The translations under genes were made by a program, and so were the position numbers. DNA of 63,937 nt, counting the filler, from Folioceros fuciformis (lineage: Eukaryota): the NCBI GenBank assembly GCA_049999805.1. It is 4 parts of 3 records of this genome, joined end to end, with 100 filler letters (N's around TTAATTAATTAA, not from the genome) between each part and the next. Parts side by side here need not be neighbours in the genome. Positions count along the whole stretch, not along the records: positions 29,285 to 54,526 come from JBNGIO010006328.1; 3 more parts are not named here. One strand, given 5' to 3'. The notes beneath the pieces were generated by a model, which was not told the DNA's origin, made no database searches, and was given only the letters and a program-made list of their open reading frames with translations. This document shows positions 15,042 to 62,035 of the stretch, piece by piece (the stretch's first letter is position 1; each line of letters begins with the position of its first letter).

Positions 15042-15768
15042 TCAGACGGTCTCGATCTTCCACAGCTGGTTGGGGCCCTTGTTCCACTTGTACAGAGTGA
15101 CGAGGGTGCCATCGCGCACGCCACCGTGCTCGTCATCGGCCTTCCAGGCGTCAAGGTTCTGGGACGTGTTTTTGGCGTTACGCACAGCTTTGTACCCACC
15201 GTCGATGTCGTCGCTCAGGCTCCAGAGCACGCTCTCGTCGAGCTCCTCGGGGTTATACTCCGTGAGACGGACCTGCTGCCCGTCAGATGTGGCGTGCTGC
15301 AGGGCCAGGCCCGTGGCCTTGCTCACCAGTGCGAAGGCGGGGTGCCCGGCGTCGTCCTGCACGCGATTGCCCCAAGACTCGTGGCGAATCCAAACCTGGC
15401 AAGACAAGCCGTCAGAATCCCGTTCCAAGAACTCCGAATTACACCATATCCGGCACGGACTCTACGTTGCCCGCAATACTGACCTGACTGTCGTCATATG
15501 ATTCTCCGGGCGCCAAGACGACCTGATTGTCGCGGACTGTGAGACTGAAGCCGGGGTTGGCCTGGCTGAAGACCTTCACGGCCTGCCGGGAGCGGCGTGT
15601 CTTGCGGCGGGCCTGGCTTTCCCCTGCCGCGGCTTCCCCCCCGTGAGCCTCCTCACGCTCCTCGTCGGAGGAGGAAGACGAGTGCCCGCCTCCCAGACCG
15701 AACAGGCCCCTGGAGCGCTGCTTCGGCTCCTGGTCCTCACCTTTCTCGCGGTGCAAGAACCCAGACAT
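15042..15768 (-). CDS. Euonymus-related lectin (EUL / OSR40-type ricin-B-like lectin); exons 15768-15484 and 15395-15042
   Basis: VKVFSQANPGFSLTVRDNQVVLAP...Q|VW...PAFALVSKATGLALQH...DESVLWS...NLDAW...GGVRDGT...WNKGPNQLWKI; 88-nt GT-AG phase-0 intron; 212 aa. Confidence 0.93.
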
Positions 15769-18546: not shown

Positions 18547-19922
18547 CAGTCCACCCTCCCTAAATGTTACCTGTAGGGCATTGGGTACCATTTAAGGAGG
18601 TCTAACATATAGAGAAAATATTTAAAATATTTAAAATATATTATATATTATATATAAACATTATATATTTAATAATATATAAATTTAGAATAAAAAATGA
18701 AAAAAAATGAACTTCAAAATGGCTTAAAAAAACGGGTTATTTCTACTTGTATCAAAGAGGACCTAACTTGCTTTAAAACTTCTTTCTCGATTTGTTGCAA
18801 ATTCTTAATTGTAGACATCATATCATTTGGTTGTTGCTCCAAAAACATGCGTATCACCCCAAGTGCATCTTCTACTTGAGCACGACCTAAAATAGGCCTT
18901 TCTTCATAATATTCTTCAAAAGAATTTTCAACGTCGACAACTTCATTTTCGGGTGGAGGTTGAGTAGAAGCCCATATATCATCTGCATCCGGAGTAGAAA
19001 AGATAGCACATGCATTTGTCACCTCATAATCAACAAATTCTTCTGCAGACATAGTAGGGGTCAATCCTGTTGTGTCAAGTCCTAAATCCCTCAGCTGATA
19101 AAGAAGCATTTCTATTTCTGCGTAATCTCTATTGTAAAATCTTCACGTGTTGCTTGATTGTCTTGTTGTTGCTCATCATCACTGTTAGCATTCCATGTCT
19201 CAAAACTAAGTTGATTCAAGTCTATATCCGACACGCTACCACTTGCTCTCTCCTACCATAACCCCGAGTGTTTCCAACAATTTCTAATGATTTTCCCTTT
19301 AACATCGATACGCCAAGCTTTTTCCAACATAGTCACAACATGATATACATCAATAAGAGGAGAATTACTATTTTGAATCTCTTGGATTTGATGCTGAACA
19401 AGCCTTTTCCTGTAATTGGCCTTAAAAGACTGTATAATGCCTGCATCCATGGGTTGGTAGCGAGCCGTAACATTAAGAGGAAAAAATTCAACTCTTGTAA
19501 TTTGAAGCTTACTTTGTGTCTCAGCTGATAGTTTATGAATAGGAGCATTATGCAAAAGAAGCAAGACATTAATACGGCCCCTAACTCTCATGTTCGCATC
19601 AAAAAAGAGAATAAATTGCTCAAATAAAGCCACCGACATCCAAGCATTTGAGTTTGCTGACCAATGAATACCCCAATTCTCCACTCGTCCAATGTTGCGA
19701 CTAGTAAAAGCTCTAGGCCTAAAGAATTTGTTGATCACAAAGGGTGGTAATTTATAACTACCATCCATATTGGTTGTCAAAGCAACATTTAGCCTTTCCT
19801 TTCGAGTTTTCTTCCCACTCAGCCTCTTCGATGCCAATGTTTTGTTCGGTTCCAATCTGCAGAACAACCCTCTTTCATCCATGTTAAAAATATCATGAGG
19901 CTCGTATTCGCATGATACTTTA
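18547..19922 (-). mobile_element. 5'-truncated pogo/Tigger-like (DDE_1) DNA transposon
   Basis: IFNMDERGLF, KERLNVALTTNMDGS, NAWMS, YQPMDAGIIQSFKANYR, IRNCWKHSG; acidic tail ending QVEITRFFKPF; candidate terminal TA|CAGTCCACCCTCCCTAAAT at 18545-18565. Confidence 0.85.
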
Positions 19923-20212
19923 GGCGACACCCGGTACAGCGGCAAGAAGGACCTGAGCACGAGCATCCTCCCCTTGCTCACCCGCTGCAGCATCTGCTTG
20001 GCAGTCTCATCCACCTTCACCCACTCCCGTACCTCCATCACCGTTCTCGTCTCCCACGTCGCTTCCCTCCCGTCTCGTGGTTCCTCCAATTCCCAATACA
20101 AACGCCGTCCAAAACAAACGCCGTCTAAATCAAAGCCCGTCTAAACGCCAGTGGGCAGTAAGAGGTATCAGTCCGACCTCCATTCGCGACGAATCTATTT
20201 CAATCCGAAGTT
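19923..20212 (-). pseudogene. Duplicated XRCC2 upstream region and first 38 codons, in frame with the transposase (ORF 20038-19253, 261 aa)
   Basis: Aligns by eye with ~18102-18340; MEVREWVKVDETAKQMLQRVSKGRMLVLRSFLPLYRVS versus MDVREWVKVDETAKQMLLRVTKGRMPVLGSFLPLYRVS. Confidence 0.9.
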
Positions 20213-21234: not shown

Positions 21235-22679
21235 ATGGGAAGCGGCCATGATCCGCACGAGGAGCAGCACCACGCCACGCACTACACCGAAGCCAGGCTG
21301 CACGGCGGCCCCGTGCATGCAATTCAAGATGAGCTGGTGAAGATGTATCCGCAGGGGGATCCGCGACGCTTGCTTACGGCGGAGGGGGATTCGGTGGTGT
21401 TGTCGAAGGCGTATGATCCGGCGCAGGTGCGTGTTGGTGTTTTTGTGTGCGTGTGTGAGTGAGGGAGATGCTTTTTGTTGTTGAGTTCTGGAGGAATGGC
21501 GAATTTGGTTTTGTTTTTTATTGCCTTTTCTTTGTGGGCGGAGATCTGTGTTCTTGGTGCGGCTGCGGCCGGGGTTTGGCTGAATCTGATCGCTGCATTC
21601 TGGATGGCCAGAAGTGGTATAAGGACGATGCGGGAGCCGGGAGAGTGGTGCAGGACGAGGAGGCGCAGGCCGGACTTGTGAAGAAAGATGCGGCGGCCTA
21701 CGACGGGCTTAGCTTCAAGCAGCACATGATTGCGGGATCTGTTGCTGGGATGGTGGAACACATGGCCATGTTCCCTATCGACACGATCAAGACACGGATG
21801 CAAGTCCTGTCTACTCCCGGTAATCAAACTCACACCAAAGTGTTGCGAGCTTTCTCTTCCATTATGAAGAGTGAGGGTCCGTTAGGGCTTTACCGAGGGA
21901 TCGGAGCCATGGGGTTAGGAGCAGGACCAGCGCATGCTGTTTATTTTTCGGTTTACGAGGTGTGCAAGGAGAAATTGGGAGGCAACAGGGAGGGCCACCA
22001 TCCGTTTGCCCATGCTGTGGCAGGGGCGTGTGCAACCGTGGCTAGTGATGCAGTTCTGACACCTATGGATGTTGTAAAGCAGAGGTTGCAGCTGAGGCAG
22101 AGTCCTTACAATGGTATAGTGCACTGCATCAGACAGATGCTACAGCAGGAAGGAGTTAAGGCCTTTTATGCATCTTACAAGACCACTGTCATGATGAACG
22201 TGCCGTTCACGGCTGTCCACTTTGCATCCTATGAAGCAGCCAAAAAGTACCTTGCTCAAACAGATGATGACGAAAACTTTTTTACACACCTCACTGCCGG
22301 GGGACTGGCGGGAGCCCTTGCAAGTGCTGTTACCACGCCCTTGGACGTGGCCAAGACACGATTGCAATGCCAGGTACGATTTGCTTACACTTCACATTTC
22401 GAAAGCGTGTCTTTGAGGTTGATATGCTTTGTGCTGTTTAGGTCTTCTTGTCTCACTTGTCAGGCTTGATCACAGGGTGTTTGTGGGGGAGAACGGTTTC
22501 ATAATACCTCAATCATGGCCGTGCTACGAAAGATCGTTTCACAGGAGGGAGCTGGGGCTCTTTGGAAGGGTGTGAGGCCGCGTGTGATGTTTCACACCCC
22601 CGCAGCAGCCATCTGTTGGACAACATATGAAGCCAGTAAGCGCTTTCTGCAGCGTTGGAACGATGACATGGAGAACTGA
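21235..22679 (+). CDS. Mitoferrin-type mitochondrial carrier (MIT/MRS3-4-like) with an N-terminal partial EUL-lectin segment; exons 21235-21426, 21612-22373, 22476-22679
   Basis: DGLSFKQHMIAGSVAGMVEHMAMFPIDTIKTRMQ, GAGPAHAVYFSVYE, TPMDVVKQRLQ, MNVPFTAVHF, TPLDVAKTRLQCQ|GVCG, PRVMFHTPAAAICWTTYE. Three PxD/ExxK signatures are present. The carrier call is firm; exon 1 is inferred. Confidence 0.88.
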
Positions 22680-23262: not shown

Positions 23263-24810
23263 TCAATAGAAACCTACCGGAGCATCAAGGGAACTATTGA
23301 CAATAGCCAATGCCAAATACTGAGAACCCATACCAGTAGCTTTTGCCGACGAGTTCGGGCTGTCTTCTTCAAGCCAAGGTGCCTCACCATCTCCAACCAG
23401 CCTCCAGTACCCTAACTGCAGCGCCTCGGCTTGGTCCTCGTTCGCAGACTTCAGTAAGTGCTCCAATCTGGTGTTGATTCCCAACATTCCCAGAAGTCGC
23501 GACTGAGTCACTGGACCGAATGCAGTGGCACCTGTTTTGGACTCCTCCACCGTGTGCTTCAAGGCAGCAAAGTCGACATGGGCACTTAGATCAGCTGTGC
23601 CTGGATCTTGAAAAACATTCACAAACTGGTGCTTCTGGATAGCTTGCAGACTGTCTGAGATCAGATGATCTTTGCCATAGTCAATGATCAAAGCCCCACC
23701 CCCATCTTCTCCAACCCGCCGAGCAATATCACGGATCACCTTCAAGGATTGGGGACAAACTTCCACCTGCTCTACTTTCCCTTTCTCCTCTGCAGTTGCC
23801 CACTTCAACCGAGGACCTAAAAAGATATAGGAAGCAGGAGTGGGATCTGGTGAGAGCACAAACTGCAGTCCAAGTTCGGAGTCCTCTGAAACATCTACTA
23901 GTTTCTCCCTCCATCCTATGTCAGTCCTCTGGAATTGATGGATAGGCAATGCATCAAAAAACTCGTGGGCAATAATAATTGTAGGGACGCCCTTAGGAAC
24001 CTGCTCAAGTTCCACATACCATGATATAGGAGCGCCTGTAATTTCAGAAACAGCGTTCACACGACCTGATTTTTCAATACCAACTCCTTCATTTGTTGAC
24101 ATTGTTGCTCCAGGATCTGATTCGCAAACAGGACGCGCCAGTTTCTCTCCTGCTGGTCTGCACTTGAGAATCTTATATTGCCGTTTCCTCAATGCGGGGC
24201 TACACTCAACAAGATGAACAGAAAGTGCCTGTGAAAATGCTGTGAAGTTCTCAGTGCCTCGCAGCAGGTCTGCCATTAGGGTTCCCCGGCCTGGCCCTAG
24301 CTCGACAAGGTTAACCTGCTTAGGTGCTCCCATTTGTTGCCAGAGACAAGTGGTCCAAACTCCCACCAGTTCCCCAAACATCTGGCTGATCTCGGGTGAC
24401 GTAACGAAATCTCCTTCACTGCCAAAAACATCCCGGTGCATGTAAAACCCGGCAGTTGGATTGGTGAGAACCTCACCCATGTACTCCGCGACGGTGATAG
24501 GTCCCCCTCGGAACCTAATCAGACTTTTGATATGCCTTGCCAAACAAGTTTCTTCACTCTTACCTGCAGCTCCTTCACGATGCTCATGCTGTTTCAACCC
24601 TGACCGATCCACAGCAATCGTGGAGTCTGTCTCTAGTTCAGTACTAGACATCCTTGGGCCAGAAGCAATCCATGGAAAGAAGCGCACATAGTTGTAAACA
24701 GATGAAACACCATATCTAGCACCCCAGCCAACCCCCTCGCAACCTCCCACTCCCTTGCTCCATGCTGATGCAAAAGGAACGCGGGAACAGGCTCGTTGCA
24801 AGAATGCCAT
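23263..24810 (-). CDS. NDUFAF7: Mitochondrial protein arginine methyltransferase, complex I assembly factor (MidA family), intronless
   Basis: GPITVAEYMGEVLTNP, GDFVTSPEISQMFGE, LVELGPGRGTLMADLLR, IAHEFFDALP, ALIIDYG, PGTADLSAHVDF; first ATG at 24810. Confidence 0.95.
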   Translation of the reverse strand: MAFLQRACSRVPFASAWSKGVGGCEGVGWGARYGVSSVYNYVRFFPWIASGPRMSSTELETDSTIAVDRSGLKQHEHREGAAGKSEETCLARHIKSLIRFRGGPITVAEYMGEVLTNPTAGFYMHRDVFGSEGDFVTSPEISQMFGELVGVWTTCLWQQMGAPKQVNLVELGPGRGTLMADLLRGTENFTAFSQALSVHLVECSPALRKRQYKILKCRPAGEKLARPVCESDPGATMSTNEGVGIEKSGRVNAVSEITGAPISWYVELEQVPKGVPTIIIAHEFFDALPIHQFQRTDIGWREKLVDVSEDSELGLQFVLSPDPTPASYIFLGPRLKWATAEEKGKVEQVEVCPQSLKVIRDIARRVGEDGGGALIIDYGKDHLISDSLQAIQKHQFVNVFQDPGTADLSAHVDFAALKHTVEESKTGATAFGPVTQSRLLGMLGINTRLEHLLKSANEDQAEALQLGYWRLVGDGEAPWLEEDSPNSSAKATGMGSQYLALAIVNSSLDAPVGFY

Positions 24811-26379: not shown

Positions 26380-28037
26380 GCCTACCTACTTTGGCACGTG
26401 CTACAGGGTTGAAGACGGCTCCGTTTTCATCTTTTTTGTAACGGGGAGACGCCAGAGTGAGTTCTGGCTACGGAGGATCACTTAGGGCTGGCCAGGACTG
26501 GGTTAATAGCAGGGCTGGTGTACAAGACTTTGTAATTGAGCAGTTTATTAACTGTAAGACCACTATAGGGCAGTGATAGTTGGGTTGGACAGCTTGTGGG
26601 TAGCAGCTTCTCGGAATGCCGTGCTTGGATGTCATCCGAAAGGGGGGACATTTTCTTTCCTCCATTTGAAGACGTACGGGGATGAGAGGAGCAAGAGCAG
26701 CTGCCACGGAGGATCCTGGTGAAGCCATGGGATGATGGGGTGTGAATTGGTTCCAGTCCATGCGCGGGCGAAATTTTTCAGACCAAAATTCGCGGCTGAG
26801 CGGTACTTTTCAGATCCAAATGCCTTCAATTTGAGACCTTTTTGCTACAAATCTCTTCGTTCCACCTCTGATCTTAGCCGAGCTTCTCCATCGTGTACAA
26901 AAGAGACTAGAAGAGTTCTTTTTCATTATTTTTACAAGGGGAATCATGGGGCATACACCGTAAGCGGCTGCGACCTAAACCAATTATTTGTCTTATTTAT
27001 TAACCTACATTAATAGCCAAATTAAGTACCAAGCGCGCCCTGGTAGGGGACCATCCACGTCCGTAGCTCGCGAGAAAAGAAAAAAACAAACCAAAATAAC
27101 ATGAAGGAACTCACAAATGAAAACAAAAGGAAACATCTACGTTAAAATAAATTCTGCCTAGTTACCTGTGGGAGCCATGCCCAAAAATCCACTAGCAATA
27201 ATTTCCTTGCATAGAGTGGAAGAAGCAGAAAACTTTCATTAGAGTTCGTTAAGGACATATGTCTACCTAGCTTCTTGTTAGAGCCATTCCCAAAAATCCA
27301 CATGCAGTAATTTCCTTGTGAGAGTACACAACGAAGAAAACATCTATTAGAGTCCACTAAGGACAGATTTCCACCTTGAGACTTGGTACTTAACAACTTA
27401 GACCATGGTATACCTAGCTAGCTACTTGCTCCAAAGGGCATCCTTCCATTTAGGCATCTCATCTAACTACTGAGCTGAGCACAAGATGTTAAATCCCAAG
27501 GTTCTTATAAACTTCTAGAAAAATTCTATGAGAGTCCACCGAGAGCGGTTCTATCATGGGACTTTGTACTTAGCAGCTTTTACCATGGTGTACCTGACTA
27601 CTTGCTGCAGAGGGCATCCTTTCCTTCAGGCATCTCATCTAAGTGATCTAAGAGCAAGATTCTTAATTCCAGAGCTTTTATAAACTTATGACCATTTGGC
27701 CTGCCATTTCGAGCAGCATGGTCATGAAAACGTGAGGACAATAAGTCTTCTTCCTGATTGTGCACAAAGGAGGCAGAAAAGTATGATCCTATCATGTACA
27801 AAAGCAGACAGTCTTGCACAAAAAGGCATGCAACCAAGGATCTAATTTGAAAGCTTTATACGAGTGGTAGCAAGACTTAGCTTAGAGCTCAAGAGATACT
27901 TGCTTTAGGCAGTTACTTTAGAAGTAATATAAGCCTTCATATAAAAGGGCCCTAGGCTGAAAGATCATAGCCTCATCATTTTGGAGCCTAGTGGTACGAT
28001 CAAGGATGCAAGTGAAGTATAAACGACATTTCAGAAT

Positions 28038-28913
28038 ATGCCTGGTATCATTCCAGATTGGCTTGCACCATTGGTGAGTAACATATCACAATATTTTGTT
28101 CCTTCTGAATCATCAAGCTCAGTGAGAAAAAAGCCGATTCTTTGTGGTCGCCATGATAATGACTCTCATGTGAAGTCTAATGGCAAAGACAGATGTCTTC
28201 AAGAATTTTGTATTACTTGTCATGAGGGACCACTTTGCAGCATATGTGTGAAGGAGAATCATAAAGATCATGAAGTACTTCACCTTCGATCAGCTTGTAG
28301 GAAGGCAGCAATTGATTATAAGGAGAATGCAAAAGTTCTAGATACTCAACTTATTGATTTTTCACTCATCGACACTGTTACTTGTAATGGTCTTGAAGTA
28401 TATTTTGTGGTCACCAATAATCAAGATGCTCACCCTAAAGGCAAGCCTCACTTATGCAAATTTTGCATGAGAACACTACCAAAGCAATATATCGATCAGC
28501 CAGCTTGGTTTTGTTCAATTTATTGCAAAGCTCAAGCTATTGCAAGTGGAGAGCCTCAATATGCAAATATGACATTGGTAAAAATAATTCCTACTATATC
28601 TGAGACGAAAGATGATAATAATAATCTACGCACAACTTCTTTATCAAGAGAATCACCTAAGCTTAGAACATCCACAACAAAAGATCATGGTCATAATTGC
28701 ATGATTGATGTATTACCGCAATCTGCTCCTACATCCATGACAAAAGGTGATCATATGTGCACACATTTATCACCACGATCACCTTCAATCTCAATGGCAG
28801 AGCCATCTACAAGTGAAAGGGTTGCAATTGAAAATAGATCTTCTAACTCAAAAAGAAGGAAATGTAAACATCCTAATCGAGCAGCAGGAGTTGGGATCCA
28901 ACCATATTATTGA
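28038..28913 (+). CDS. Divergent intronless PLATZ-family zinc-dependent DNA-binding protein
   Basis: PDWLAPLV; C-x2-H...FCITC...LCSIC...H-x2-H; C-x2-C-x-R-x-L...FCSIYCK; C-terminal KRRKCKHPNRA, like the PLATZ RRKGxPxRA motif. Confidence 0.8.
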   Translation: MPGIIPDWLAPLVSNISQYFVPSESSSSVRKKPILCGRHDNDSHVKSNGKDRCLQEFCITCHEGPLCSICVKENHKDHEVLHLRSACRKAAIDYKENAKVLDTQLIDFSLIDTVTCNGLEVYFVVTNNQDAHPKGKPHLCKFCMRTLPKQYIDQPAWFCSIYCKAQAIASGEPQYANMTLVKIIPTISETKDDNNNLRTTSLSRESPKLRTSTTKDHGHNCMIDVLPQSAPTSMTKGDHMCTHLSPRSPSISMAEPSTSERVAIENRSSNSKRRKCKHPNRAAGVGIQPYY

Positions 28914-29595
28914 GTTTATAATATTTAATTATATTCTCAATATTATTTTATTTATTATTTTTATTTTGATAGGATGACTAGGTTCATGCGAAGTGCGGGT
29001 GGAAACAACTTAAGTTGGCATCTAATTTAGAAATGAAGGTAGGCTAGTATTGAAGTTGATTTTAAAATGGATGCAAGCTAGGTTGCTAATCCATTTTACA
29101 ATGGAGGTTAGCTAGGTTGGCAATCTATTTCAAAATGGAGCCATGGTTGGAGGGCTACCAATTCTAAAATGGACACATTCTAAGNNNNNNNNNNNNNNNN
29201 NNNNNNNNNNNNNNNNNNNNNNNNNNNNTTAATTAATTAANNNNNNNNNNNNNNNNNNNNNNNNNNNNNNNNNNNNNNNNNNNNGTCCCATGATTGTGCC
29301 ATAGCGAATGCCTCCACACTACAAGCTGAGCTTCTGCTTTAGAAAGAACGTGAAGTCTCGAGATTTGGTGATTGCTGGGAGAGGACGACTTTAAGCTACG
29401 CAGCCCAATCCGGATAAAGCCCTATTCTGGTCGGACAATTGACGTTGACTTCAGATATTCGGACGCTGTCCCACCTTCTTCGGATTTGCATTGTCTTTCT
29501 GAGTCTTTCGTAGTAGAGAGAACGAGCAACTGTGAAGGTACTCTACAGAGATAGACCAGTTACCTGGTGAAGCAGTAGCCCGATTCTGCCCGATC

Positions 29596-32500
29596 ATGGA
29601 TTCAGAAGATCTGATGGAAAGCTTCCAAGTCGATGAAAGAACGGTGAGCTAAGCACGTGCACACACACTTGCCCTGCTTTGCATTTTGTTTTTTGCAAAT
29701 GCCAATCGATCCCTGTGAGTGCAGCTCTTAATACACGTGCCAAATGAGGAAGAAGCCTTAGCTCGTAAACTAGGACAAGCGGCGCTGGTATCCAATGCTC
29801 TGGAAACCAAGCTAAAACAGTTGGCGAGCAGAGCAATTTCAGCCAAGCAGTCTCGGAGTTGGTCAGAAGCCGTTTTCGGGTATGAGAAGTTTCTGAAAGT
29901 TGTCCGGAGGGAGGGCCAGGGTCTCTCAAATCAGTTGCGTGTTTGGTTGATCACATGGGCGTCAGTGGAGGTTGCTCATCTCAGACACCTGAGGTTCCCC
30001 AGCCATGGTATAGCAATAGACATTTATGATCACCTGCTGTTTTGCTTGGAATCATCAGACAACAGGCACAGTTCGTTTGCAAATGTTGTTAAGGATCTGC
30101 GGAGGATGGTGTTATTTGATTGGGGTCGACACATCATCGTTGGTCCTCGTCAGCTTTTTGGTGTTCAAATGGAGGACTTCAATGTTGTTTGTCTTAGACA
30201 TGGTGAGCACTTCAACCGTGAAGATCCAACACTAATCGACATTTCGAGATTGCTAGCCTTGCAACACCAAGCTTGTGGGCAATACGACAAGGCTTTAGCT
30301 TGGGCTGGCGTCAGCAGGAAGCTGCTTGAGTATTTTTTCGAACGATGTGCTGCACTAAGGCAAGCTGGGTCTGATCTGGACTTCACTGCCGTGTACGAGA
30401 CGTTCTTTCTTGATAAGCTGGTGGACTGCCGCGTCATTCAAGCTGATTTGTTGTCTCGAATAGGAGACTATGAACAGGGTAAAAAGGATCTTCTGGATTT
30501 GAAGGACGAGTTGGATGCGATGGTAGATACTGAGGAATCTCTTGAATTGTCTCAAAGAAAGTTAAATAGTGCTATTCGTCATGTGAACACAGCTCTCGTT
30601 TCTATATACCTCCAGCTCCCTGATGATGCTGAAGTCAGGTCTGCCATCGAATCCCTGGATACGGAGTGCAGGGATCTGTTGGAAATTGTCCCTCCTGCAG
30701 AAAATGATGAAGCCTCCTACATAGCCCAGCAAATTCACAGATCCGATGAGTATCGCAAATCTACCAGGTCAGCAACTGTACTCATTTATGTCGTAGGCTT
30801 ACTTGCATGATTGAAGTTGGCTGGCATTCTCTCCCTAAAGAGGTATTAACCTCTGGACGTTTTGTTGGTTGTGCAGGGTTCAAGAAGCGATTGAATGTCT
30901 GCAAGCTGCTTTCCTCAAGATTAAAGGCAGTAGCGATCACTCTATTCGTCGTAGATATGGGCTTGACAGTGCAAATTTACTGGCTGTTATGTTCGAAGAT
31001 GCAAGCAAGTCCGATGATGCTGTGGAGTGCCTCCAAACTGCCTGCAAATATCGAAAGGAAGCTTGTTACTTTGCAAGTGAAAGAGGAAACTTGTATGAGA
31101 TAGCAGATGCCTGTTTTAAATTGGGCAGAATATTATCCTGCCTACTCGAACACCGAGTTGACAAGCAAGACAAGTCACTTATCCCAGTGCAGGTTGCGAC
31201 ATGGCTGAAAGGTACAGGTTTGTTTCTCATTCCAAGGTTTTGCAGTAAGGCTTGACCTTAACCGTCCAAATCTATTCTGGTATCAGCTCCTTGCTGATCA
31301 CGCGCATTCTCAGCAGATGCACCAAAAATGTCTGCGCCTGCACTCCTACTCCAAGATGAATTGGATTGGCTTTCAGCATGGATATCAGCAGCCTCGTTCT
31401 ACAGGTTATCAGCCTCGTTGTATTCTGAGGTTCTTTATAATATAAGGGATAGGAGCACCTCTTGGATGAAAGTGATGAACCATAGCCAGCACAGGCAACA
31501 ATATCTTTCCTTGCAGGTCATGATGGGCATTATGTTAAAACACCTTGATGAAGTTATACATCGTGATCTTGTTGGCGAAATAAGCAAGATGGGACTGCTG
31601 TGGGCTGAGAGAGGGCGAACTAGAACATTGGTTTACCAGCTGGGGCCAGGATGGTTATATAATCTAGCACCCACTGCAACGATGGGCGAGTATCTCGAGT
31701 TTGATTTACAAGACCAGGTAGAGACCTCATGACCACATGTTTGCATGCCAGCAGACATGACGATCAGGTCATTAGTAGCATGTCTTTGATTTCCGTGACT
31801 TCACTAAGCCGCTCTGATTCAGGTGGCATGGATTGCCTTAAGAGAGGGCCAAAGTGCATGTGGTGCTGGAGCGGTGTTCATTGAGTATACGCTCAGCAAG
31901 ACTGCAATTATTGCCTATGCGGTCACCAAGGTGAGAGTGCTGGAGCGGTTATTGTTATATGCAACCGACGAAGCTGTGCAAAAGTTTGTCTGCTTACATA
32001 ACCACCATTGCTGAGTGATTTTCCTCGATCAGGATGGGAATGCCAGTATGCATATAGTCCCAACACCGGGGAAGGAGGGTGAGCCCTTGGAGCAACTTCT
32101 AGATACTCTGATGGCTGCAATGTCCAATGAAAAGGATTATCACGAACCACAGGTTCTGCGTCAACTGGAGGTTTTATATGCTCTCTTCCTCGGCCCCTTC
32201 GCCAACGTGCTTGCTGACATGGAAGTAGCCGACAAGCTGGTGTTTTGTCCCCACGAGGTATATGCTCCTCCCTTCAATAATCGCCTGGTGAGGAGCGTGT
32301 TTGGTAGCATAGATGGAGGAAGATATCGCAGTGTAAAAAAATTGTCTAGCGGTAGAGACTGCCTTGAGCTATCTTAGCACAGTACCATCGCACCCAATCA
32401 GAAGCAGGCTCCAGTGACAACCGGTCGGGGTTTTGATTCAGGAAATTGCTCGTGTCCCATTTGCTCTCCTTCGCAATCCTGAAACCAAGAGGTTTCTTTT

Positions 32501-33626
32501 TGAAGAGCACACAGTATCGCTTACTCCATCCCTTCGGGTCCTTTACAGTTGCCATGGTCGGCATTCATACTTGAGAAGTCTGGGCACAGACTCTGTTTCT
32601 GGCAAACTGGCGGTGGCAATCGGAGACCCAGCCTATGAAAGGAAACGCATAGAGAAAACACTGCTGGAGGTGAAGGCACTGGAATCGTTGTTTGGGGACC
32701 AATGTGCCAGTCTTACGGGCACAGATGCGACAGTGGAGAGGTTCTTACAGCTCGTCGAGCAGCCATCACTGGGCGCAACGACACCCTACCATGGAGTCAT
32801 TCACCTGGCTGTGCATGGTCATGTGAATAGTAGTTTCAAGCAAGGAGCTTTACAATTTGCGGCTCCTCAACCAGCTTCAGAGGATGGACAGCAAAAAAAT
32901 TTTGGGGGTCCTATACGACCTGCAACCGCCCAGCCACAGGATGGCACCTCTACGCTTGCTCCACCGGTTTCAGTCGATGCATATGGACACAACGGTTTTC
33001 ATAGAGGTCCTATTGAAGGTGAAACCTCCCAGCTACAGGATGGCACCTTTGCAGAAGTTGGTCATCTGGTCAGGAGGGGGAGAGGAGGAACCTATGCTAA
33101 GAAGACATATCTCCGATCAGAGGACATCACCAACTGCGGATTTGACTGGCGTGCCTTCATGGTTGTGCTGAGTGCCTGCAATACGTCGCAAGGAGAGGTA
33201 TTTTGCTAGCCATTGTGAAGCTTTGGAAGGGTTTTGAGCTTGCTACTGGCATCACTAGGAAACTGCATTCTGCAGCCAGCTTACTTTTGGTCAGGCAGCT
33301 TAATTGCTGGTGGCCTTGCGCAGGTACTTGCAGAGGGAATACTAAACATGCCTCGTGCATTGACAACAGTCGGAGTACCTTGTACGGTCATGTCACAGTG
33401 GAAGTGCGTTGATGAGTCCACTGCGGAGCTCATGGTTCAGTTTTATGGGAATATGAAGGCAGGGGATGACGCAGCAACAGCATTACGAAGGTCTATGCTT
33501 TTGTTGCTGGACAACAAGAGGAAGGAGGAAATCCTCGAAATATATCGATGGGGTGCTTTCATCCTGTGGGGCCTGCCAACAGTTCGACTACCTGCCGCTA
33601 TGCTTCATGAAAACGTCGATAGTTGA
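29596..33626 (+). CDS. TPR-like helical / CHAT-domain (caspase-related clan CD) protease, ~1072 aa; exons 29596-29643, 29725-30767, 30877-31211, 31317-31717, 31823-31930, 32033-32257, 32442-33197, 33324-33626
   Basis: All 7 GT-AG introns keep frame. LLWAERGRTRTL, LVFCPHE|EIARVPFALL, SLTPSLRVL, VAIGDP, IHLAVHG, VVLSACNT, EGILNMPRAL, SQWKCVDEST, WGAFILWG. More 5' exons may lie upstream or in the gap at 29185-29284. Confidence 0.88.
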
Positions 33627-33791
33627 TTAAACAGAGTAGAGCTCTATCTTAGGGTTTTTCCGATTTCATAAGACGGCTCTCATGAGAATCGTCATCAACA
33701 TGCAGAACATACCATGGATGCCACAAGCCTTAGAACTTGCAGTAAAGTAGTCAAGCTTGTAGGTGTATGAGCTCCAACCTCCCACTTAGTC

Positions 33792-33904
33792 ATATCGCTT
33801 GGGTTCTTTCAGCCTGTAGGGCCTGCCAACAGTTCGACTTGCTGCAGCTAGGTTTCATGAAAACGTCCATAGTCCATTAACCAGAGTTGAGTTCTATCTT
33901 AGGA
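33792..33904 (+). pseudogene. Diverged duplicate of the 3' end of the CHAT gene
   Basis: gggcctgccaacagttcgact...ttcatgaaaacgtc...ctatcttagg repeats ~33541-33653. Confidence 0.8.
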
Positions 33905-36900
33905 CCCTCACGCACTGAGTTATCGGTGGGAATCACGAACCTGCCAGCAAGGCGTTTTGGTACCAAAATCATGTGACAGGTTATTGCGGTTTTGAGCTCT
34001 AAATCTAGGACCTTTCCACACTGAGCGTTGGGATGAGCGTAGTTTTCAGCCACGTAGGCAGTTTCCGCGTTTTTGGGTTCGGCCCGTTTTCTACGCAATC
34101 CCTAATAATTGTGCCAAAACACATGTGTCTGAGCGGGCAAAGATGCAATCCTCGACGTACACAGCAAGGATGCAGAAGGCAGAGCCATCAGTCAAACAAT
34201 AAACAAATGAGTCTGCTGTACTTTGCACAAACCCTAATGCCTTGAGTTCTTCATTTAATTTCTGATTCCATCGCACAGCACTCTGTTTGAGCCCGTACAG
34301 GGCTTTAAGCAATTTAAGTACCTTTTGAGGGTAGCGTTTATCCACATATCCCTGTGGTTATTCCATATAAATGTCCTCTTGAATCTCGCCGTGTAGAAAA
34401 GCTGTGCACACATCCATTTGATGTAATTCAAGGTTTTGTTCAGCCGAAATTGCTAGCAGCACCCTAATAGATTGTGCTTTGACTACAGGGGAAAACGTCT
34501 CTTGACAGTCCAAGCTAGGGACTTGAGTGAAGTTGTGGGCATAGAGGCGGGCCTTATACCTGGCAATTTCACCTTCTGCATTTAGTTTGGTCTTAAAGAC
34601 CCATTTACATGTAACAGCCTTCCTACCAGGTGGCAAGTCTGTAAGTAACCAAGTTTTATTCTTTAGGATGGACTGATATTCCTCCTCTACTGTAGCTTGC
34701 CAATGGTGTGCATCAAGACCTGTATATGCTTCATCCATGGAAACAAGGTCGAGGAGGAGAGGTGAACTGCCAGAAGTGGCAAAATGGGCATAGTGCCGAA
34801 AATCTAGAGAAGCGTATGGGGGTTCTATCCACTAAGAAGGGGGTGGCCGTGCTCGAGCGGGACTACGTCTTGGTGCTGAGATCATAGGAGGGAGTGGAAG
34901 ATCCTCCTCTACTTCTGACAAGTCTGGATCAGGGTCAGGAAGAGAAAGAGGTTCTATCACTGAGTCAGGCACAGGATCTTGGGTATTGTCTAAGGGATCC
35001 AGATGAGGATCAGCAAGAGGATCTAGGTCATCTGGATGCGGATCAAGATATATAGGTTGCTGCACTGTTATCTAAGGAGGGAGTTGTTCAGTAGGAGTAG
35101 AAACTGCATTGGGTTGAGTCGCAAGAGTTCCTTGTGGAAACTAAACTGGGTGAGTGTCAAAGCCAGCCTGGTATGAGGTGGTATCCTTATCCTTAGATGT
35201 GTCAGAATCAACATGTATTCCAAATGTAATAGAGGATCCTGTATCGACAAGCTCTTTCAAAACGACACTACGAGCTAAGACTGGAGCAAAGGTTAGAGGA
35301 TTAATTAATTTGTATGCTTGTGCCTCTTCACTATAGCCTATAAAAAGGAGGGCTCTAGATCTATTATCTAACTTTTGACGTTTAGCTTGTGGGATGTAGG
35401 CAAAGGCAGGAGATCCAAAAACTCTGAAGTGCAGGATACTGGGCTTGCAACCCCAGAACAGTTGAAAGGGAGTCTTGTCCGCTAAGGAGGTAGTGAGCAG
35501 CCAATTGAGGATATACATTGAAGTAACCACTGCCTCAGCCCAATACTCTTCAGTTAAGTTTGCCCAGTTCAGCATACTTCTGGTCATGCCCATGAGGATC
35601 TGATTCTTACGCTCGGCCACATTGTTCTGTTGTGGGGTGTATGGCACTGTGAGCTGGCGTATGATCCTACGCTCCTGTAGGCACTGGTCAAACAATTTGT
35701 TGCAGAACTCCGTGCCATTGTCTGAACGGATGCACTTGAGAGTATGACCAGACTGTCTTTGTGCCATTGGTAACCACTCCTAGAAATAGGTAAGTGTATC
35801 ACTTTTCTTTGTCATTGGATAGGTCCATGTATAACGACTAAAATCGTCGGTGATGGTCAGATAGTAGGATGAGCCACCAATGGACTTAACCTGCAACTTG
35901 CCAGAGATGTCAGCATGAATTAGATCAAGAACTATGGGAGTACGGAAACCAGCATGTGGAAAGGGTTTCTCCCGTTGTTTGGCGAGCAGGTAGGCCTCAC
36001 ATATGGGTAAATCCTTGAAACAAGATGGAAGTGGTTCAACATAGCAGTTTGCAGTTGACATCTTAATTAATGAATTTTTGTTGACATGGCCGAGTTAGGC
36101 ATGCCACAACTTGGCTTGTTCAGTTGTAGATAAGTGTACGGGTGTGGTTGATGTAGCAACAGGAGTTGGTGTTACTTCACATGGTACATCCAGACGACAA
36201 AGATCAGAATCAGGTATTCCTCGACCAATACATTGTGTGTTAGAAGCTCGTCTGAATATTTCACAAGTGGTGTCAAAAAACCAAAACTCCAGGTTGTAAT
36301 AGGAAGCGAGAAGTCTCACAAAGAGGAGATTCTTCGCCATGCCTGGTACGTACAAGATTCCTGGCACATGCAGACTGAATTGTCAGTCATCAAAAATCGA
36401 CAAGTACCATAGCCTTTGATGGGCAAGCTCGTGGATTGCTTTTCATCCCCAAGCAAGACAGCTTGTTTGGAGTTGGACATATCCTTATAGGAGCTGAATA
36501 GTTCTTTGTCTTTGCAGATATGGGTGGTAGCACCAGAGTCTAAGTACCAATTGCCAAGATCACTTGAAGAGGAAGAAAGACATATGGTGTATATCTTCAC
36601 CACAGCCTTGCCTCCTTCAGTCGAAGATCTCTCCTTAGTAACTGAATTGGCCTCTGGCCTCTAGTTTGGGACGACGAGGCTTGCCAGCCTTCTTACGTCG
36701 GCAGTCCCTCTCCCAATGGCTTGGTGTGTTGCACCAGTTGCAGCTACTAGGCTTCTTTGAAGTCAATGAAGATGCTCCAGTAGTGGAGGTTTGTTGTTGT
36801 CGACCTTGAAATGGAGGTCTTCTCCCTCTACCTCGCCCTCTCCCGTAACCTCCATGCTGAGATGAGGTATATAGATCTCGGTCAATTCAAATTTTGCCAG

Positions 36901-40984: not shown

Positions 40985-43900
40985 TATTAAATAATGGGTT
41001 TATTATTTAAAGGGTCCATTCCTAACTTATTAATTAAATTAGGGTTAGAGGTCAAGTTGAAACGTTGTTTTAAGTTTTTTTTTAGGGTTATGAATGGTTA
41101 CGACCCTTCACACACTTTCTTGTACCTTGCCAACCCCTTTTTTTAATAATCATTCTCTTATGTGCTAATTGCTATGGCTTCTACCTATGCAAACTAATGA
41201 ACCATTCTTGTTTATGGTATCAGAGCAGGAATTGTTTCCATGCTTGGTGTGACGTATAATTGACCCTCTAACATCCAAATTTCATGGATATACAACAGGG
41301 CCAAATTAAAGACGTCCACCACTTGCAATTATACATAAAATGTGTATCGGTCCTTTATAATCGCTAACTATTTTGCTATTCTAACCCCACAGACCTCCAA
41401 ATCATGAAGAGGCGCTCTTTCTCCAATCACTTGTGATCTCTCCAGTGACTGCACACAAGGAAACCTACCATAAATCAGTAAATGATGCTTAAATTTAATA
41501 AATTGTGCCCTTAAGTTCAGCAATTATGCTTATTAACTAACCCAGTAGTGGAAATGACAAGGAAACATCATAAGTCACAATCTTGTAGATGCCATTCACC
41601 TCAGACATCATAAGTCATAATCTTGTAGATGCCATTCACCTCAGACATCTACATGTGTCATTAGATGTTGTAATTGTCATCCTATAGCTTGTCATTTTCC
41701 ACAATCCAGATCATACCTAAATACAAATAATATAGGTAAGTCAGATACTAGAAAATATAGCAAGTTAATCTAGAATCACCTCACACCTGCACTATACAAA
41801 ATTAAGTTACTACAGAAGGAAATTCTTGAATTGAAGCGCAAAACAAAATATGATACAAATATGCTACTTTGGCAATTTGGTCAATTAGCATGTAAGCAAA
41901 CCTGGCTAGAAAACAAATTTGATCTGGTAGATACAAAAACACATATTTTGCAACCTACAGCCAAGCCAGTTTACTCACGTTGTGATCCAGTAGTTTCCTC
42001 CATACCTAGTAACAGTCCATATCAACCTCAACCTGAACCGGTAGGTTTGACCACTAGTAAAATGTCACAATTGCTAGAGCCAACTGACATAATACTTAGC
42101 AGCATTGCTAACCCTTTTAAACTGAATATAACCACCCTGTAGGATACCTACACAAGACAGGTCGACTAATCCTCGGCTTAGCACCCACTTCAAGGTAGGG
42201 ATCAACCTTTTTTTAAGCACCACAATATGGGTACTAATCCACCCATAATAACACAAGTACATACTACAAAAGTTGAAATCAAAGATAGGGACAGATTTAA
42301 AGCAATCTGGCGAATGCGAATGGAATCAATATTCGAGGAACATGACCTGATGGATATTGTCTCTAGAGCTCTAGCTCAGCTGACAGTTCCCACTCCAGCA
42401 CCTGCAGTAGGATCTTCATCAGCCCTTGTCATTACAGCATGGCACAAGAAGGATAAACGGGCTCGGAGCATCCTCTTATCAGCACTTGATAAGAACATGA
42501 TACATCACACCCAAGGCCAGCATACTGCTGCAGCCGTTTGGCGTGTATTCCTTGACATGTTTGCTGCCAAGGACCCAATGTCCTTGGTCAACTCTACACG
42601 CCTCTTTTATACCCTACGTATGAAAGAGTCTGATACTGTGGAACATTATGTTAACAAGTTCCGCACCCTCCGTGCTAAATTATCCTCTGCAGGACATGAC
42701 ATTACAGAATCAGCAGCTGCAACCACACTGTTGACTTCATTACCAGGCAGCTACCGGAGTTTCGTAAGCACACAAGCTGCATTGATGAGGAAATCATCAA
42801 ATTATACCTTATCTGAGCTCATAGGGGCTCTACTTGAAGAAGAATCCAGTAGGGTGAATATGGGACGGATCTCTAATCACCCACAACAACATGTGATATA
42901 TACCTCCAGAGGCAGAGGCCGTGGAGGATACAAACCTTTTTCTAATCCACGACGTCCATATTCAGGACCAGGCAATACCTCAACTACACCACGTAGGGTG
43001 AAAGGCCCCTGTAATTGGTGTTGAATTCCGGGTAATTTTGAGAATGAGTGCCGGAAGAAATAGGCAAGGGAACCTAGACGCCTTGCGGATACGAATGTGG
43101 CTGTTAGACAATGTAACAGCAGCTCAAAAGCACCAGCCATATTAGCTGTTTGCCTCTCACTAACCAGGGCGGATAAACATATGTGGTTTCTAGATTCTGG
43201 GGCAACTAATCATATTTGTCAGTCCCGTGACATGTTTATAACTTATATTACAACAACTACCAGTCAATTCGTCCTCCTAGGAGATGATAGTGGACTGGCT
43301 ATGCATGGGAAAGGAGACATTAAATTGCAGCCTAACCATGGTCACCAGATCATTTTGAAGGATGTCCTGCATGTCCCAAAGATGACCAAAAATTTACTTT
43401 CAGTTCATAAGCTAATTTCAGATCATAGCTTACAAATTACCTTTACACCTACGTCGTGTTTTGTCACTCCTGTCGATGATTGCCAGATAGTCTCAGCTTC
43501 AGGAGTACCTTATCATGACCCGTACAGCCTGCAAATTACAGCAACAAAGCAAGCTTTAGTCTCAGATGCTAAACCTGGAGTAAGTCCAACTTTTCTTTGG
43601 CACAACAGATTATGCCACCCTAGCCATGGATATTTACAGCAAGTCCTACGAGATGTAGACTTATATAAGGATGGACTTACCTTTGAAGCTGATGATGACT
43701 TGTTTTGTGAGAGCTACCAATTTGGGAAGCTTTCTCAAAAACCTTATAATGATCCATCTCCTACTAGGGCTAGACAATTACTGGAAGTAGTCCATTTAGA
43801 CATATGTGGACCAATGTCCACTCAGTCTTTTGGTGGATCAATATATTTTCTATCTTTCCTGGATGAGTGGAGTCATTACTGCCAGCTATATTTTTTACAT

Positions 43901-46457
43901 AGCCGTAGTGAGAACTTTACCAAGTTTGTTGAATATGCAGCAATGGCAAAAGCTCAAACAGGGCATGTAATTAAAAGGCTGCGCAGTGACAACGGCAAGG
44001 AGTACCTTAGCGCTGAGTTCACAAATTTCTGCAAGCAAAAAGGGATTATACATCATCTAACTGTCACTTATCCACCACAAAACCCATTTGCAGAAAGATA
44101 TAACAGAACAATTTAGGAAAGAACAAGGGCAACACTTACAGCAGCTGGACTTACAAGGGGATATTTGGCTCAAGCAGTGGATACAGTCAATTATGTGGCT
44201 AACAGATTGCCTCTGAAACCACTGTATGATACCACTTCCTATCAAAGGTGGAAAGGCAATAAGCCGAGGATTAGTCATCTAAGAACCTTTGGTGCATCAG
44301 CATATGCATTTGTACCAGAGGACAAAAGAAGAAAAATGGACAACAAGGCAACAAAGCATATTTTTGTAGGATACTCAGACATTGTGAAGGGATATAAACT
44401 TTCAGCCCCGTCGTCAAACCAACATCCATGCGTATCTTGTTGTGTTATGCTATTCAGAATCATTTGCTAGTCCACCAAATGGACGTTAAGATGGCTTTCT
44501 TGAATGGTCCACTGGATGCAGTTATTTATATGCAGCAGCCCGAAGGGTACATATTGGACCCCTCACTAGTCTGCGAACTGCTCAAATCCATATATGGGCT
44601 CAAACAATCTGCCCGCATATGGAATGGCAGGGCTGCAACAAAACTCAAGGCATTAGGTTTCGAACAACTAACTGCAGATACGAGTGTTTTCATTCTGCGC
44701 AAAGATAATGAGCTGTGCATCATTGCCCTCTATGTTGATGACAATTTTATTTTTGCTATCAGCCAGGAAGTTCTGACTAGGATCAAGAAGCACTTATCTG
44801 ATGAATGGGACATGACTGATGTAGGCCCTCTTCGTTTCGCACTTGGGATACAGTTTAATTTCAATCATGTAGGCTCCTCAGTCACTCTACACCAGGAACA
44901 CTTCATTAGGCAGATCCTTACAAAGTTCAAGCTAGAGGACATCAATCCAGTAGTAACTCCTATAGCTGCAGGTGAGAAATTATCTTTAGAGGATTGTCCA
45001 ATCACAGCAGAAGATAAACATGAAATGTCCATTTTACCTTATCGCGAGGTAGTTGGCAGTCTTCTTTACTTGGCTGGATGGACACGACCTGATATATCAC
45101 AAGCCACTGGGATTGTGTCAAGATATCTTTCAAATCCAAGAAAACGTCACTGGACAGCAGTGAAAAGAATTCTACGCTATTTAAAAGGCACTTGGTATTT
45201 ATCTTTGAGGTACACCAAGGCCACAGACCTCACTCTAACCTGCTACTCGGATGCTGATTGGGCAGGGGACATAGGTGGAAGAAAATCAATTGCAGCCTAC
45301 TGCACCTTACTTTGTGGATTTGCTGTGAGTTAGCAAAGTAAGAAACTCTCAACTATCAGCCTTTCCTCAACAAAGGCTGAATACAGTGCCCTGTCACTTG
45401 CAGCAAGAGAGATCAGCTGGTTGAGACAGTTTCTTACTGATATTCACATCCAACAACACACTCCTACCACACTGCAATGTGATAATCAATCGGCTATAGC
45501 TCTATCAGCTAACCCTATCTTGCATGCTCGGTCTAAACATATCGAAATACAGTTCCATTATATACGCTAGGTTGTAGAGCAAAAGGTAATCAAGCTTATT
45601 TATGTACCTACTGCCTAGAACGTGGCCGGTCTTCTAACAAAAGGCCTCTCTAAAGCACTACACGAACAACACAGACTATCAATGGGTTTGGTTCAGAATG
45701 TTGTTCAGTTGAAGAAAAGCAATGATGTAGCTCAAGCCTTGCTAGCACGCTATTCTCATGTCACCTGCAGACAAAGGGAATAGCATCAGGAGTTTAAATG
45801 GACATTAGAATTACACGGAGCCAGCTATTAGCAGCGTGGCCAGCATAAGTTCAGCACAAGACGTAGCAGCAACACCCTGGATGAAGCCCTTACTCCAGAT
45901 CAAATCAGTGTGCAGTTGCAGCAAATCCTTTTCCCTCTCCACCAGCCAGCGGCATCAAGCAAGTTGTTTTTGGACGCGGAGTAGCTCCATGTCTGTAATG
46001 GACAGATCCATGTGGGTCTTCTGGTGCCGTTCCCCTTTCACAGCAGCGTGTGCTGCAATCCACTATCTCGCGCTCATAAGAGATTTGCGCATGCGGCCAT
46101 CTGCAAGGAAATGAGGCTACACGGCCTCACTCCGTGAACAGGCAACGCACGTTTTTCCTTTTTAGGGCTACTTAGTATTTAATTTAATTATCTAAATTAG
46201 GCCTGAGAGGGGGTATTAAATAATGGGTTTACTATTTAAAGGGTCCATTCCTAACTTATTAATTAAATTAGGGTTAGAGGTCAAGTTGAAACGTTGGTTT
46301 AAGTTTTTTTTAGGGTTACGAATGGTTATGACCCTTCACACACTTTCTTGTACCTTGCGAACCCCTTTTTTTAATAATCATTCTCTTATGTGCTGATTGC
46401 TATGGCTTCTACCTATGCAAACTAATGAACCACAAACTAATGAGCCATTCTTGTTTA
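40985..46457 (+). mobile_element. Ty1/copia element 2, both LTRs present, non-autonomous; LTRs 40985-41214 and 46214-46457; TSD TGATC
   Basis: Near-identical LTRs; PBS tggtatcagagc (tRNA-iMet) at 41215; PPT tgagaggggg before 46214; TGATC at 40980-40984 and 46458-46462; gag, FLDSGAT, LRSDNGKEY, LYVDD, YSDADWAG; stops and an internal IN-RT deletion near 44400. Confidence 0.95.
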
Positions 46458-61935: not shown

Positions 61936-62035
61936 NNNNNNNNNNNNNNNNNNNNNNNNNNNNNNNNNNNNNNNNNNNNTTAATTAATTAANNNNNNNNN
62001 NNNNNNNNNNNNNNNNNNNNNNNNNNNNNNNNNNN

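Follow-up and report, generated by a model that had tools for sequence, protein, structure and literature searches.

Within a 63,937-nucleotide stretch of DNA from Folioceros fuciformis (assembly GCA_049999805.1; four parts of three records joined end to end, referred to throughout as the window), an intron-containing gene lies on the plus strand at 29596-33626. The soluble protein of 1073 amino acids that it is predicted to encode ends in a CHAT domain with a candidate cysteine-protease dyad, His846 and Cys967. Work on caspase-fold proteases in plants centres on metacaspases, vacuolar processing enzymes (VPEs) and separase. CHAT proteases are described as acting in three settings, namely RNA-triggered proteolysis in CRISPR systems (PMC9729208), anti-sigma signalling (PMC11506125) and the activation of gasdermins in fungi (PMC8851545). 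Here, we describe the structure of the gene, its CHAT domain and dyad, and the clade of moss, liverwort and fern proteins to which its product belongs, before weighing what such a protein might do.

All stop-to-stop open reading frames (ORFs) of the window were listed, the region 29400-33950 was read and candidate exons were joined by script from their coordinates, giving eight exons that form one open frame from ATG to TGA:

29596..29643, plus strand: exon 1, amino acids 1-16, with the start ATG at 29596 and the donor acg/GTGAGC
29725..30767, plus strand: exon 2, amino acids 17-364, the divergent N-terminal region, inside an open frame at 29719-30810
30877..31211, plus strand: exon 3, amino acids 364-476, with TPR-like signals below threshold
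31314..31717, plus strand: exon 4, amino acids 476-610, with AERGRTR at 31604-31624; alignment to Ceratodon runs from about residue 475
31823..31930, plus strand: exon 5, amino acids 611-646, with canonical splice sites and both junctions unbroken in the alignment to eight relatives
32033..32257, plus strand: exon 6, amino acids 647-721, the start of the CHAT domain, aligned with relatives
32442..33197, plus strand: exon 7, amino acids 722-973, the CHAT core, with the His846 codon at 32814-32816 and the Cys967 codon at 33177-33179
33324..33626, plus strand: exon 8, amino acids 974-1073, the C-terminal part of CHAT, with the TGA at 33624-33626

The coding sequence is 3222 nt long and, with the intron-7 acceptor at 33323, yields 1073 amino acids, in agreement with the initial annotation of the locus, which had proposed an intact intron-containing gene for a protein of about 1072. 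All seven introns run from GT to AG, six of them measuring 81-184 nt and intron 7, with its revised acceptor, 126 nt; no frameshift or stop interrupts the 1073 codons, and an in-frame stop lies 20 codons before the ATG. Homology to relatives continues unbroken across the junctions 4/5, 5/6, 6/7 and 7/8 and, because it comes together with a 3.2-kb frame that stays open over eight exons, the gene model lies far beyond what chance would produce. A run of Ns at 29185-29284, read as an assembly gap, sits about 310 nt upstream of the start codon, so that the promoter region is incomplete. Abutting this run is a 34-nt unit in five tandem copies (29025-29182).

At two introns the choice of acceptor affects the protein. 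That of intron 3 is a NAGNAG (31313 or 31316), either version of which is in frame with a difference of one residue, and sequence alone cannot decide between them. For intron 7, an acceptor at 33275 (giving 1089 amino acids) was considered and rejected, as it adds 16 residues right after the catalytic Cys that are missing from all eight aligned relatives, and for this reason 33323 is preferred. The local CHAT profile scores the 16 residues past the exon 7/8 junction of the longer model as an insertion, the match to the Pfam CHAT family PF12770 in the long exon 8 begins at residue 18, just beyond them, and the version with acceptor 33323 aligns to the eight relatives free of gaps at 7/8. Both acceptors are in frame, and to judge from the sequence alternative splicing of intron 7 is possible and could modulate the active site.

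The CHAT domain is recognized by several comparisons. Pfam was searched exon by exon, and PF12770 (cut-off 24 bits) matched both exon 7 (E 6.4e-15, 55.8 bits, profile positions 35-171) and exon 8 (E 1.3e-16, 61.3 bits, positions 207-288 of a profile of length 289), while a local hidden Markov model (HMM) of CHAT gave a single envelope from residue 659 to the C-terminus at 258 bits. CHAT clusters also account for 29 of the 30 matches in a protein-atlas feature search. Peptidase_C14, C50 and C13 gave no Pfam match in the exons of the gene (C14 and C50 being unlisted at E up to 1), and no transmembrane segment is predicted, the highest hydropathy over 19 residues being 1.42. The motifs that the initial annotation had singled out as catalytic are in place, with IHLAVHG at residues 841-847, its second His being His846, and VLSACNT at residues 963-969, its Cys being Cys967. 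Both residues are invariant in the alignments A1, A2 and A4 (14, 6 and 13 sequences, respectively), and both are present in 16 of the 17 domain rows printed, the exception being the second domain of a CHAT protein, P0007, which is without the His. On these profiles and alignments we regard the CHAT assignment and the positions of the dyad residues as solid.

Comparison with solved structures depended on the query. Searching PDB sequences with exon 7 by phmmer found nothing at an E of 0.1 or below, and a profile of alignment A1 gave 206 PDB matches dominated by TPR proteins and uninformative for the CHAT part, so the CHAT-only profile A4 was used instead. Its best match is chain B of DdvA (8ROT, E 9.5e-11), followed by the CHAT protein 8TL0, chains of Csx29 and separase (the last at E 0.002-0.003). 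Counted along the profile-to-PDB alignment, the dyad columns of A4 land on DdvA H862 and C907, the two residues named as its catalytic dyad (PMC11506125); Csx29 has H585/C627 as its dyad and no longer cleaves once it carries C627A or C627S (PMC9729208). An AlphaFold2 (AF2) model of exon 7, built on an alignment of 62 homologues, has a mean predicted local distance difference test score (pLDDT) of 74.5 with a core at 88-97, and its strands at 117-122 and 238-243 end just before H125 and C246 (exon numbering). When this model was compared with the PDB by Foldseek, caspase-fold proteases made up 34 of the 35 rows shown, among them MALT1, Dronc, caspase-9, DdvA, metacaspases and Craspase, the exception being 3bij, a structural-genomics protein of unstated fold; the comparison thus fits a caspase fold, though weakly.

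Between the two dyad residues the protein carries a low-complexity insert:

32904..33077, plus strand: low-complexity insert, about amino acids 876-933, rich in G, A, P, Q and T

The insert measures some 58-75 amino acids in the window protein and is predicted to be disordered, the AF2 model falling below a pLDDT of 50 at exon-7 residues 155-157, 162-168 and 170-212. Within it, a direct repeat (32907-32949 and 33006-33048) marks an internal duplication of 99 nt (33 amino acids), with 81% identity over 43 nt, which suggests that the His-Cys loop has recently grown. An insert of low complexity and variable length occurs at this place in all plant-like rows and is absent from the bacterial ones.

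The conserved region that precedes the CHAT domain (about residues 475-650), which includes WAERGRTR, also occurs in bacterial TPR-CHAT proteins. Its AERGRTR motif stands at residues 573-579, is kept in the plant relatives and forms part of a consensus, ALExAERGRARAF, that plant and bacterial TPR-CHAT proteins have in common in alignment A1; the initial annotation had placed the motif correctly but called it a linker, and its conservation in both groups makes it more than that. Further towards the N-terminus the picture is less clear. The description of this part as TPR-like is not borne out, as no TPR model reached its cut-off in the exons of the gene, the best being TPR_11 in exon 3 (E 0.0077, 16.3 bits against a cut-off of 26.8), where TPR_1 (E 0.01) and TPR_2 (E 0.011) are likewise sub-threshold. 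Of the HMM searches that had been proposed for the gene, that with CHAT thus succeeded and those with TPR models fell short. Exon 2 matched no Pfam family above cut-off, and hhalign against the TPR part of the bacterial TPR-CHAT profile A1 gave a probability of 0.3% for exon 2 and 6.5% for exon 3. The long helical N-terminal region of the initial annotation fares somewhat better, in that the fold of exon 2 is predicted to be mostly helices, but the prediction is a low-confidence single-sequence AF2 model, the mean pLDDT of which (46) makes it unusable for a fold search. Atlas feature matches of the N-terminus lean to TPR clusters (0.93-0.94) with low recognition (1831), and a phmmer search with residues 1-560 against 185 collected CHAT proteins gave a single weak match, to P0183 (residues 48-124, E 4.8e-6). 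A very divergent helical repeat may be present here. As far as the alignments reach, the first ~470 amino acids are lineage-specific and the C-terminal ~415 are CHAT.

The relatives of the window protein are few and distant. By BLASTP, residues 475-1086 of the 1089-residue version share 32% identity with the Ceratodon relative P0003, and a word-indexed search for longer proteins with exon 7 returned just two matches, the better being Ceratodon purpureus KC19_8G146300 at 35%. When the Ceratodon CHAT half was used as a query, the plant-named proteins among the matches listed (120 of 437) were three from Ceratodon and one from Sphagnum; next among those listed came a protein combining PP2 with CHAT and a protein of 2112 amino acids, and most of the others were TPR-CHAT proteins of Cyanobacteria. 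When exon 7 was run by HMMER exhaustively against 1.84 billion representatives, 63 matches appeared at E <= 0.001, 18 of them at E <= 1e-10 and none at E <= 1e-30, the best again being from Ceratodon, at 39%. Names were sought for 20 of the 63 (P0002, P0003 and P0005 had been met in other searches), and these look-ups added Adiantum capillus-veneris GOP47_0007083, from a fern, and Riccia sorocarpa R1sor_001044, from a liverwort, both annotated as 'hypothetical / CHAT domain-containing'. Across the C-terminal half the plant relatives are 26-34% identical to the window protein, and within the CHAT domain identity does not exceed 43%. Among the short matches (<300 amino acids, n=32), 15 begin at the start of exon 7 and 8 stop at its end, which fits single exons of intron-containing relatives that were called as separate ORFs and whose intron positions would be conserved. 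Prokaryote genomes were scanned with two peptide patterns common to the window protein and the bacterial-like P0002; 11 of the 166 pattern matches were confirmed, and nine of these 11 loci are Acidobacteriota or Thermoanaerobaculia-type metagenome-assembled genomes (identity 25-33%).

A phylogeny, proposed in the initial annotation, was run with bacterial and bryophyte/fern rows. The local HMM gave 157 near-full CHAT rows, of which the plant-like ones were kept, P0001 and P0124 were dropped as near-copies of P0003 and P0183, and the remaining rows were thinned at 55% identity, leaving 66 rows by 294 match columns for a careful IQ-TREE run. The window protein pairs with P0183 (100/73) and then groups with Adiantum, P0142 and Ceratodon, within a plant-like clade of 12 rows that includes the window protein, Ceratodon, Riccia and Adiantum (ultrafast bootstrap, UFBoot, 99 and SH-aLRT 98). 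A further branch (92/93) separates the Acidobacteriota-type proteins from a set made up of the plant clade, P0007 and the cyanobacterial-type TPR-CHAT proteins. Because the bootstrap was still short of convergence (correlation 0.96), the tree has no known root and it includes no animal or fungal CHAT proteins, a bacterial origin of the clade is a lead and not a result. Architectures in and around the family vary, with a PP2 lectin domain before the CHAT domain in P0005, TPRs C-terminal to it in the Ceratodon protein P0004, and two CHAT domains in P0007.

By these searches and the tree, the gene is an ordinary member of a small clade found in mosses, a liverwort and a fern, visible in the databases and unstudied. 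The initial annotation had allowed that it might belong to an already characterized, conserved plant orthogroup; the bryophyte-fern clade is indeed conserved, but no paper characterizing it was found. More broadly, no study of plant CHAT proteins was found in the literature, the coverage of which was mostly open-access, so that one may exist, and among the matches listed the papers mentioning PF12770 concern corals, bacteria and fungi.

Several known systems offer points of comparison. Closest are the embryophyte relatives (Ceratodon KC19_8G146300, M758_8G142700 and M758_N021900, a Sphagnum compactum product, Riccia R1sor_001044 and Adiantum GOP47_0007083), which share with the window protein the motifs WAERGRxR, VFVEY, VPFALLR, HLxVH and VVLSACN, a C-terminus in WGLPTVxLP and the His-Cys insert. 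They differ in that the first ~470 amino acids of the window protein are not alignable with them and in the long C-terminal extensions of the Ceratodon proteins. To the eye, the tail at the C-terminus of Ceratodon P0001 resembles repeated ubiquitin-interacting motifs; Pfam gives none there at E up to 0.01.

With the bacterial TPR-CHAT proteins, namely Csx29 and those of Cyanobacteria, the window protein has in common the predicted CHAT fold, the His-Cys dyad and a motif of the AERGRxR type, which is present in the cyanobacterial consensus. In Csx29, the sensing of a signal by the TPR part ends the latency of the protease (PMC9729208). In contrast to these proteins, the window gene is eukaryotic, has introns and is without a CRISPR or defence-island context (no Cas domain was found in the window ORFs scanned), and its product has a long His-Cys insert, predicted to be disordered, and an N-terminus that is not recognizably TPR. 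DdvA of Myxococcus xanthus (8ROT and 8RW5) is, among proteins of solved structure, the one that matches best in sequence, with the dyad aligned, and is also a Foldseek match, but it is a transmembrane, periplasmic and dimeric anti-sigma factor, whereas the window protein has neither a predicted transmembrane segment nor a sigma-binding domain.

Among eukaryotes, the HET-Q2-like TPR-CHAT protein Q2L-6 of Podospora anserina cleaves the gasdermin Q1-6 (PMC8851545) and offers, for eukaryotes, the clearest example of cell death set off by a CHAT protease. Like the window protein it is a multidomain protein of a eukaryote, in which the CHAT domain stands at the C-terminus and a repeat or sensor region (in the window protein a putative one) at the N-terminus; unlike it, the fungal genes cluster with a gasdermin gene, of which the window has none, and no fungal sequence appears in our searches or tree. 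The animal TTC28 and the coral TPR-CHAT proteins likewise place one CHAT domain at the C-terminus, after a long N-terminal region, but in them this region has clear TPR arrays, and animal CHAT proteins are absent from the named matches and from the tree. The coral family is described as growing by tandem duplication in variable regions rich in transposable elements (PMC12314368). The metacaspases (C14), separase (C50) and VPEs (C13) belong to the caspase-hemoglobinase fold class that is predicted for the window protein, and Arabidopsis metacaspase 4 and a yeast metacaspase are among the weak Foldseek matches, but the domain of the window protein is CHAT, a separate family.

We think it probable that the window holds an apparently functional nuclear gene from a land plant outside the seed plants, and that it encodes a soluble, latent CHAT cysteine protease (clan CD) of ~1073 amino acids, with a His846/Cys967 dyad and a place in the moss-liverwort-fern clade. 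If it works as Csx29, DdvA, separase and the fungal Q2L-6 do, the protein would be a latent endopeptidase, the N-terminal region of which may keep the dyad in a resting geometry, or control access to it, until a ligand or partner binds, whereupon the Cys967 thiolate, aided by His846, would cut a specific substrate or the protein's own chain.

Some points weigh against this. Latency, activation, a substrate and a role in immunity or cell death are all features that we infer from such analogues. The fold prediction of the CHAT domain covers exon 7 alone, and its Foldseek comparison gave no PDB match at E <= 0.001, the best having E 0.033 and a TM score of 0.27; the dyad is assigned from alignment and from strand positions in exon 7, and not from three-dimensional geometry. 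The gene is predicted from genomic sequence, no homologue covers exon 1, the support for which therefore comes from its open frame and splice-site logic only, and, given the N run, a further upstream exon is conceivable. The initial annotation went beyond a protease, to a sensor-protease of immunity or cell death; this was extrapolated from bacterial, fungal and animal analogues and finds no support in the window, where Pfam revealed no gasdermin among the 46 ORFs of at least 130 amino acids scanned besides the exons of the gene.

A further point, that CHAT proteins without demonstrated protease activity exist, the functions of TPR and CHAT in TTC28 being described as poorly understood (PMC12314368), would also suit a non-catalytic scaffold, in which the CHAT fold would serve for binding and the helical region and disordered insert would do the work, without proteolysis. 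Such a scaffold would be in keeping with the second CHAT domain of P0007, which has lost the His and shows that degenerate CHAT domains occur near the family, and with the DdvA dyad mutants, reported to be without phenotype in resting cells (PMC11506125). We nevertheless judge it unlikely, as the His and Cys are invariant in all three alignments and kept together in all but one of the domain rows, and a dyad retained while overall identity has fallen to 26-43% points to selection on catalysis. An unexpressed or decaying recent duplicate, open through youth and lying beside retrotransposons, would be in keeping with the Copia fragments ~450 nt away, the relic of the gene's own 3' end, the N run in the putative promoter and the scarcity of close relatives, no near-identical protein being present in the collections (best 39%). 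Against this, 1073 codons without frameshift or stop, GT-AG borders in seven of seven introns and a full set of conserved family motifs, in a protein with only 43% CHAT identity to its nearest relative, point to long-term purifying selection and not to recent decay, which makes the duplicate improbable, more so than the scaffold. A gene fragment borne by a transposable element was also considered and rejected.

Bacterial contamination, or a very recent transfer from bacteria, deserves almost no credence. Outside the bryophytes and ferns, its closest relatives are indeed TPR-CHAT proteins of Cyanobacteria and Acidobacteriota, but the seven spliceosomal-type introns, together with the PLATZ, NDUFAF7 and malectin-like kinase genes and the Copia elements around the gene in the window, in our view refute it, and the 99/98 clade with named moss, liverwort and fern proteins likewise speaks for the plant gene that we favour. 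As to where that gene came from, one could imagine that the bryophyte-fern CHAT clade derives from a cyanobacterial-type TPR-CHAT conflict protease, gained by an ancestor of land plants and, in seed plants, lost or no longer recognizable. Its members would then be intracellular sensor-proteases outside the nucleotide-binding leucine-rich repeat (NLR) class, with swappable modules (the N-terminus, the PP2 lectin, the C-terminal TPRs) that release a latent protease for defence or cell death, a scenario that we put forward as doubtful.

A conserved bryophyte-fern CHAT clade with an intact dyad would be a tractable entry to the question of whether early-diverging plants use a caspase-like sensor-protease. 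Mosses and Marchantia-type liverworts are easy to transform, and the value of the gene described here is that of a well-defined model with named catalytic residues to mutate.

The surroundings of the gene in the window, including the Pfam matches of the scanned ORFs, are as follows:

5959-10096, minus strand: malectin-like receptor kinase pieces (malectin-like at 8481-9242 and 9533-10096; kinase at 5959-6381 and 6939-7436)
15042-15461, minus strand: ricin-type beta-trefoil lectin ORF (RicinB_lectin_2, E 2.8e-7)
19253-20140, minus strand: pogo/Tc5-type transposon piece, upstream of the CHAT gene
21468-22469, plus strand: mitochondrial carrier ORF with three Mito_carr repeats
23263-24810, minus strand: NDUFAF7-type methyltransferase, intronless, 515 amino acids (Methyltransf_28, E 2e-66)
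28023-28913: PLATZ gene, upstream of the CHAT gene
33792..33903, plus strand: relic of the 3' end of the CHAT gene, comprising the last 85 coding bases and 27 bases of 3' flank, 86% identical to 33542-33653 over 112 nt
34358-35779, minus strand: Copia piece, downstream of the CHAT gene
42182-45333, plus strand: Copia piece
47014-48243, plus strand: pogo/Tc5-type transposon piece, downstream of the CHAT gene
56067-60409, plus strand: Copia piece
61984-63936, minus strand: Copia piece

The NDUFAF7 ORF, the exact sequence of which is absent from the protein collection, served to place the host. Its best matches, moss and lycophyte proteins, have 61-65% identity, with 61% to Physcomitrium and Diphasiastrum and 64% to Sphagnum (78% of the query covered); liverworts follow at 56-59% and ferns at 58-59%, and the seed plants listed reach 52-57%, except Cryptomeria japonica at 61% over 83% of the query. 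Since identities to non-seed land plants are thus 56-65%, the host is on this protein solidly a land plant, as the initial annotation had it, and appears about equidistant from mosses, a lycophyte, liverworts and ferns, with seed plants more distant. The collection has no close relative of it, and a deep non-seed lineage seems likely.

The Copia pieces, at least four in number, begin at ~34.1 kb, just downstream of the gene, and reappear as far as the window's end, so that the initial description of a gene at the edge of a nest of transposable elements, beside a relic of its own duplicated 3' end, holds. By tblastn the relic shows 27 amino acids with 70% identity, and further upstream there is no match. 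The 'dynamic gene family' that had been read into this arrangement is unproven, no second CHAT copy being present in the window. The Pfam families of the two pogo/Tc5-type DNA transposon pieces are DDE_1 and HTH_Tnp_Tc5, and a UvrD-type helicase piece lies upstream of the CHAT gene. ORFs on the opposite strand that overlap the ricin-type lectin gave no match. The malectin-like and kinase pieces are probably one multi-exon gene, and the ends of the mitochondrial carrier ORF look non-homologous by eye, which suggests unrecognized introns or a different start.

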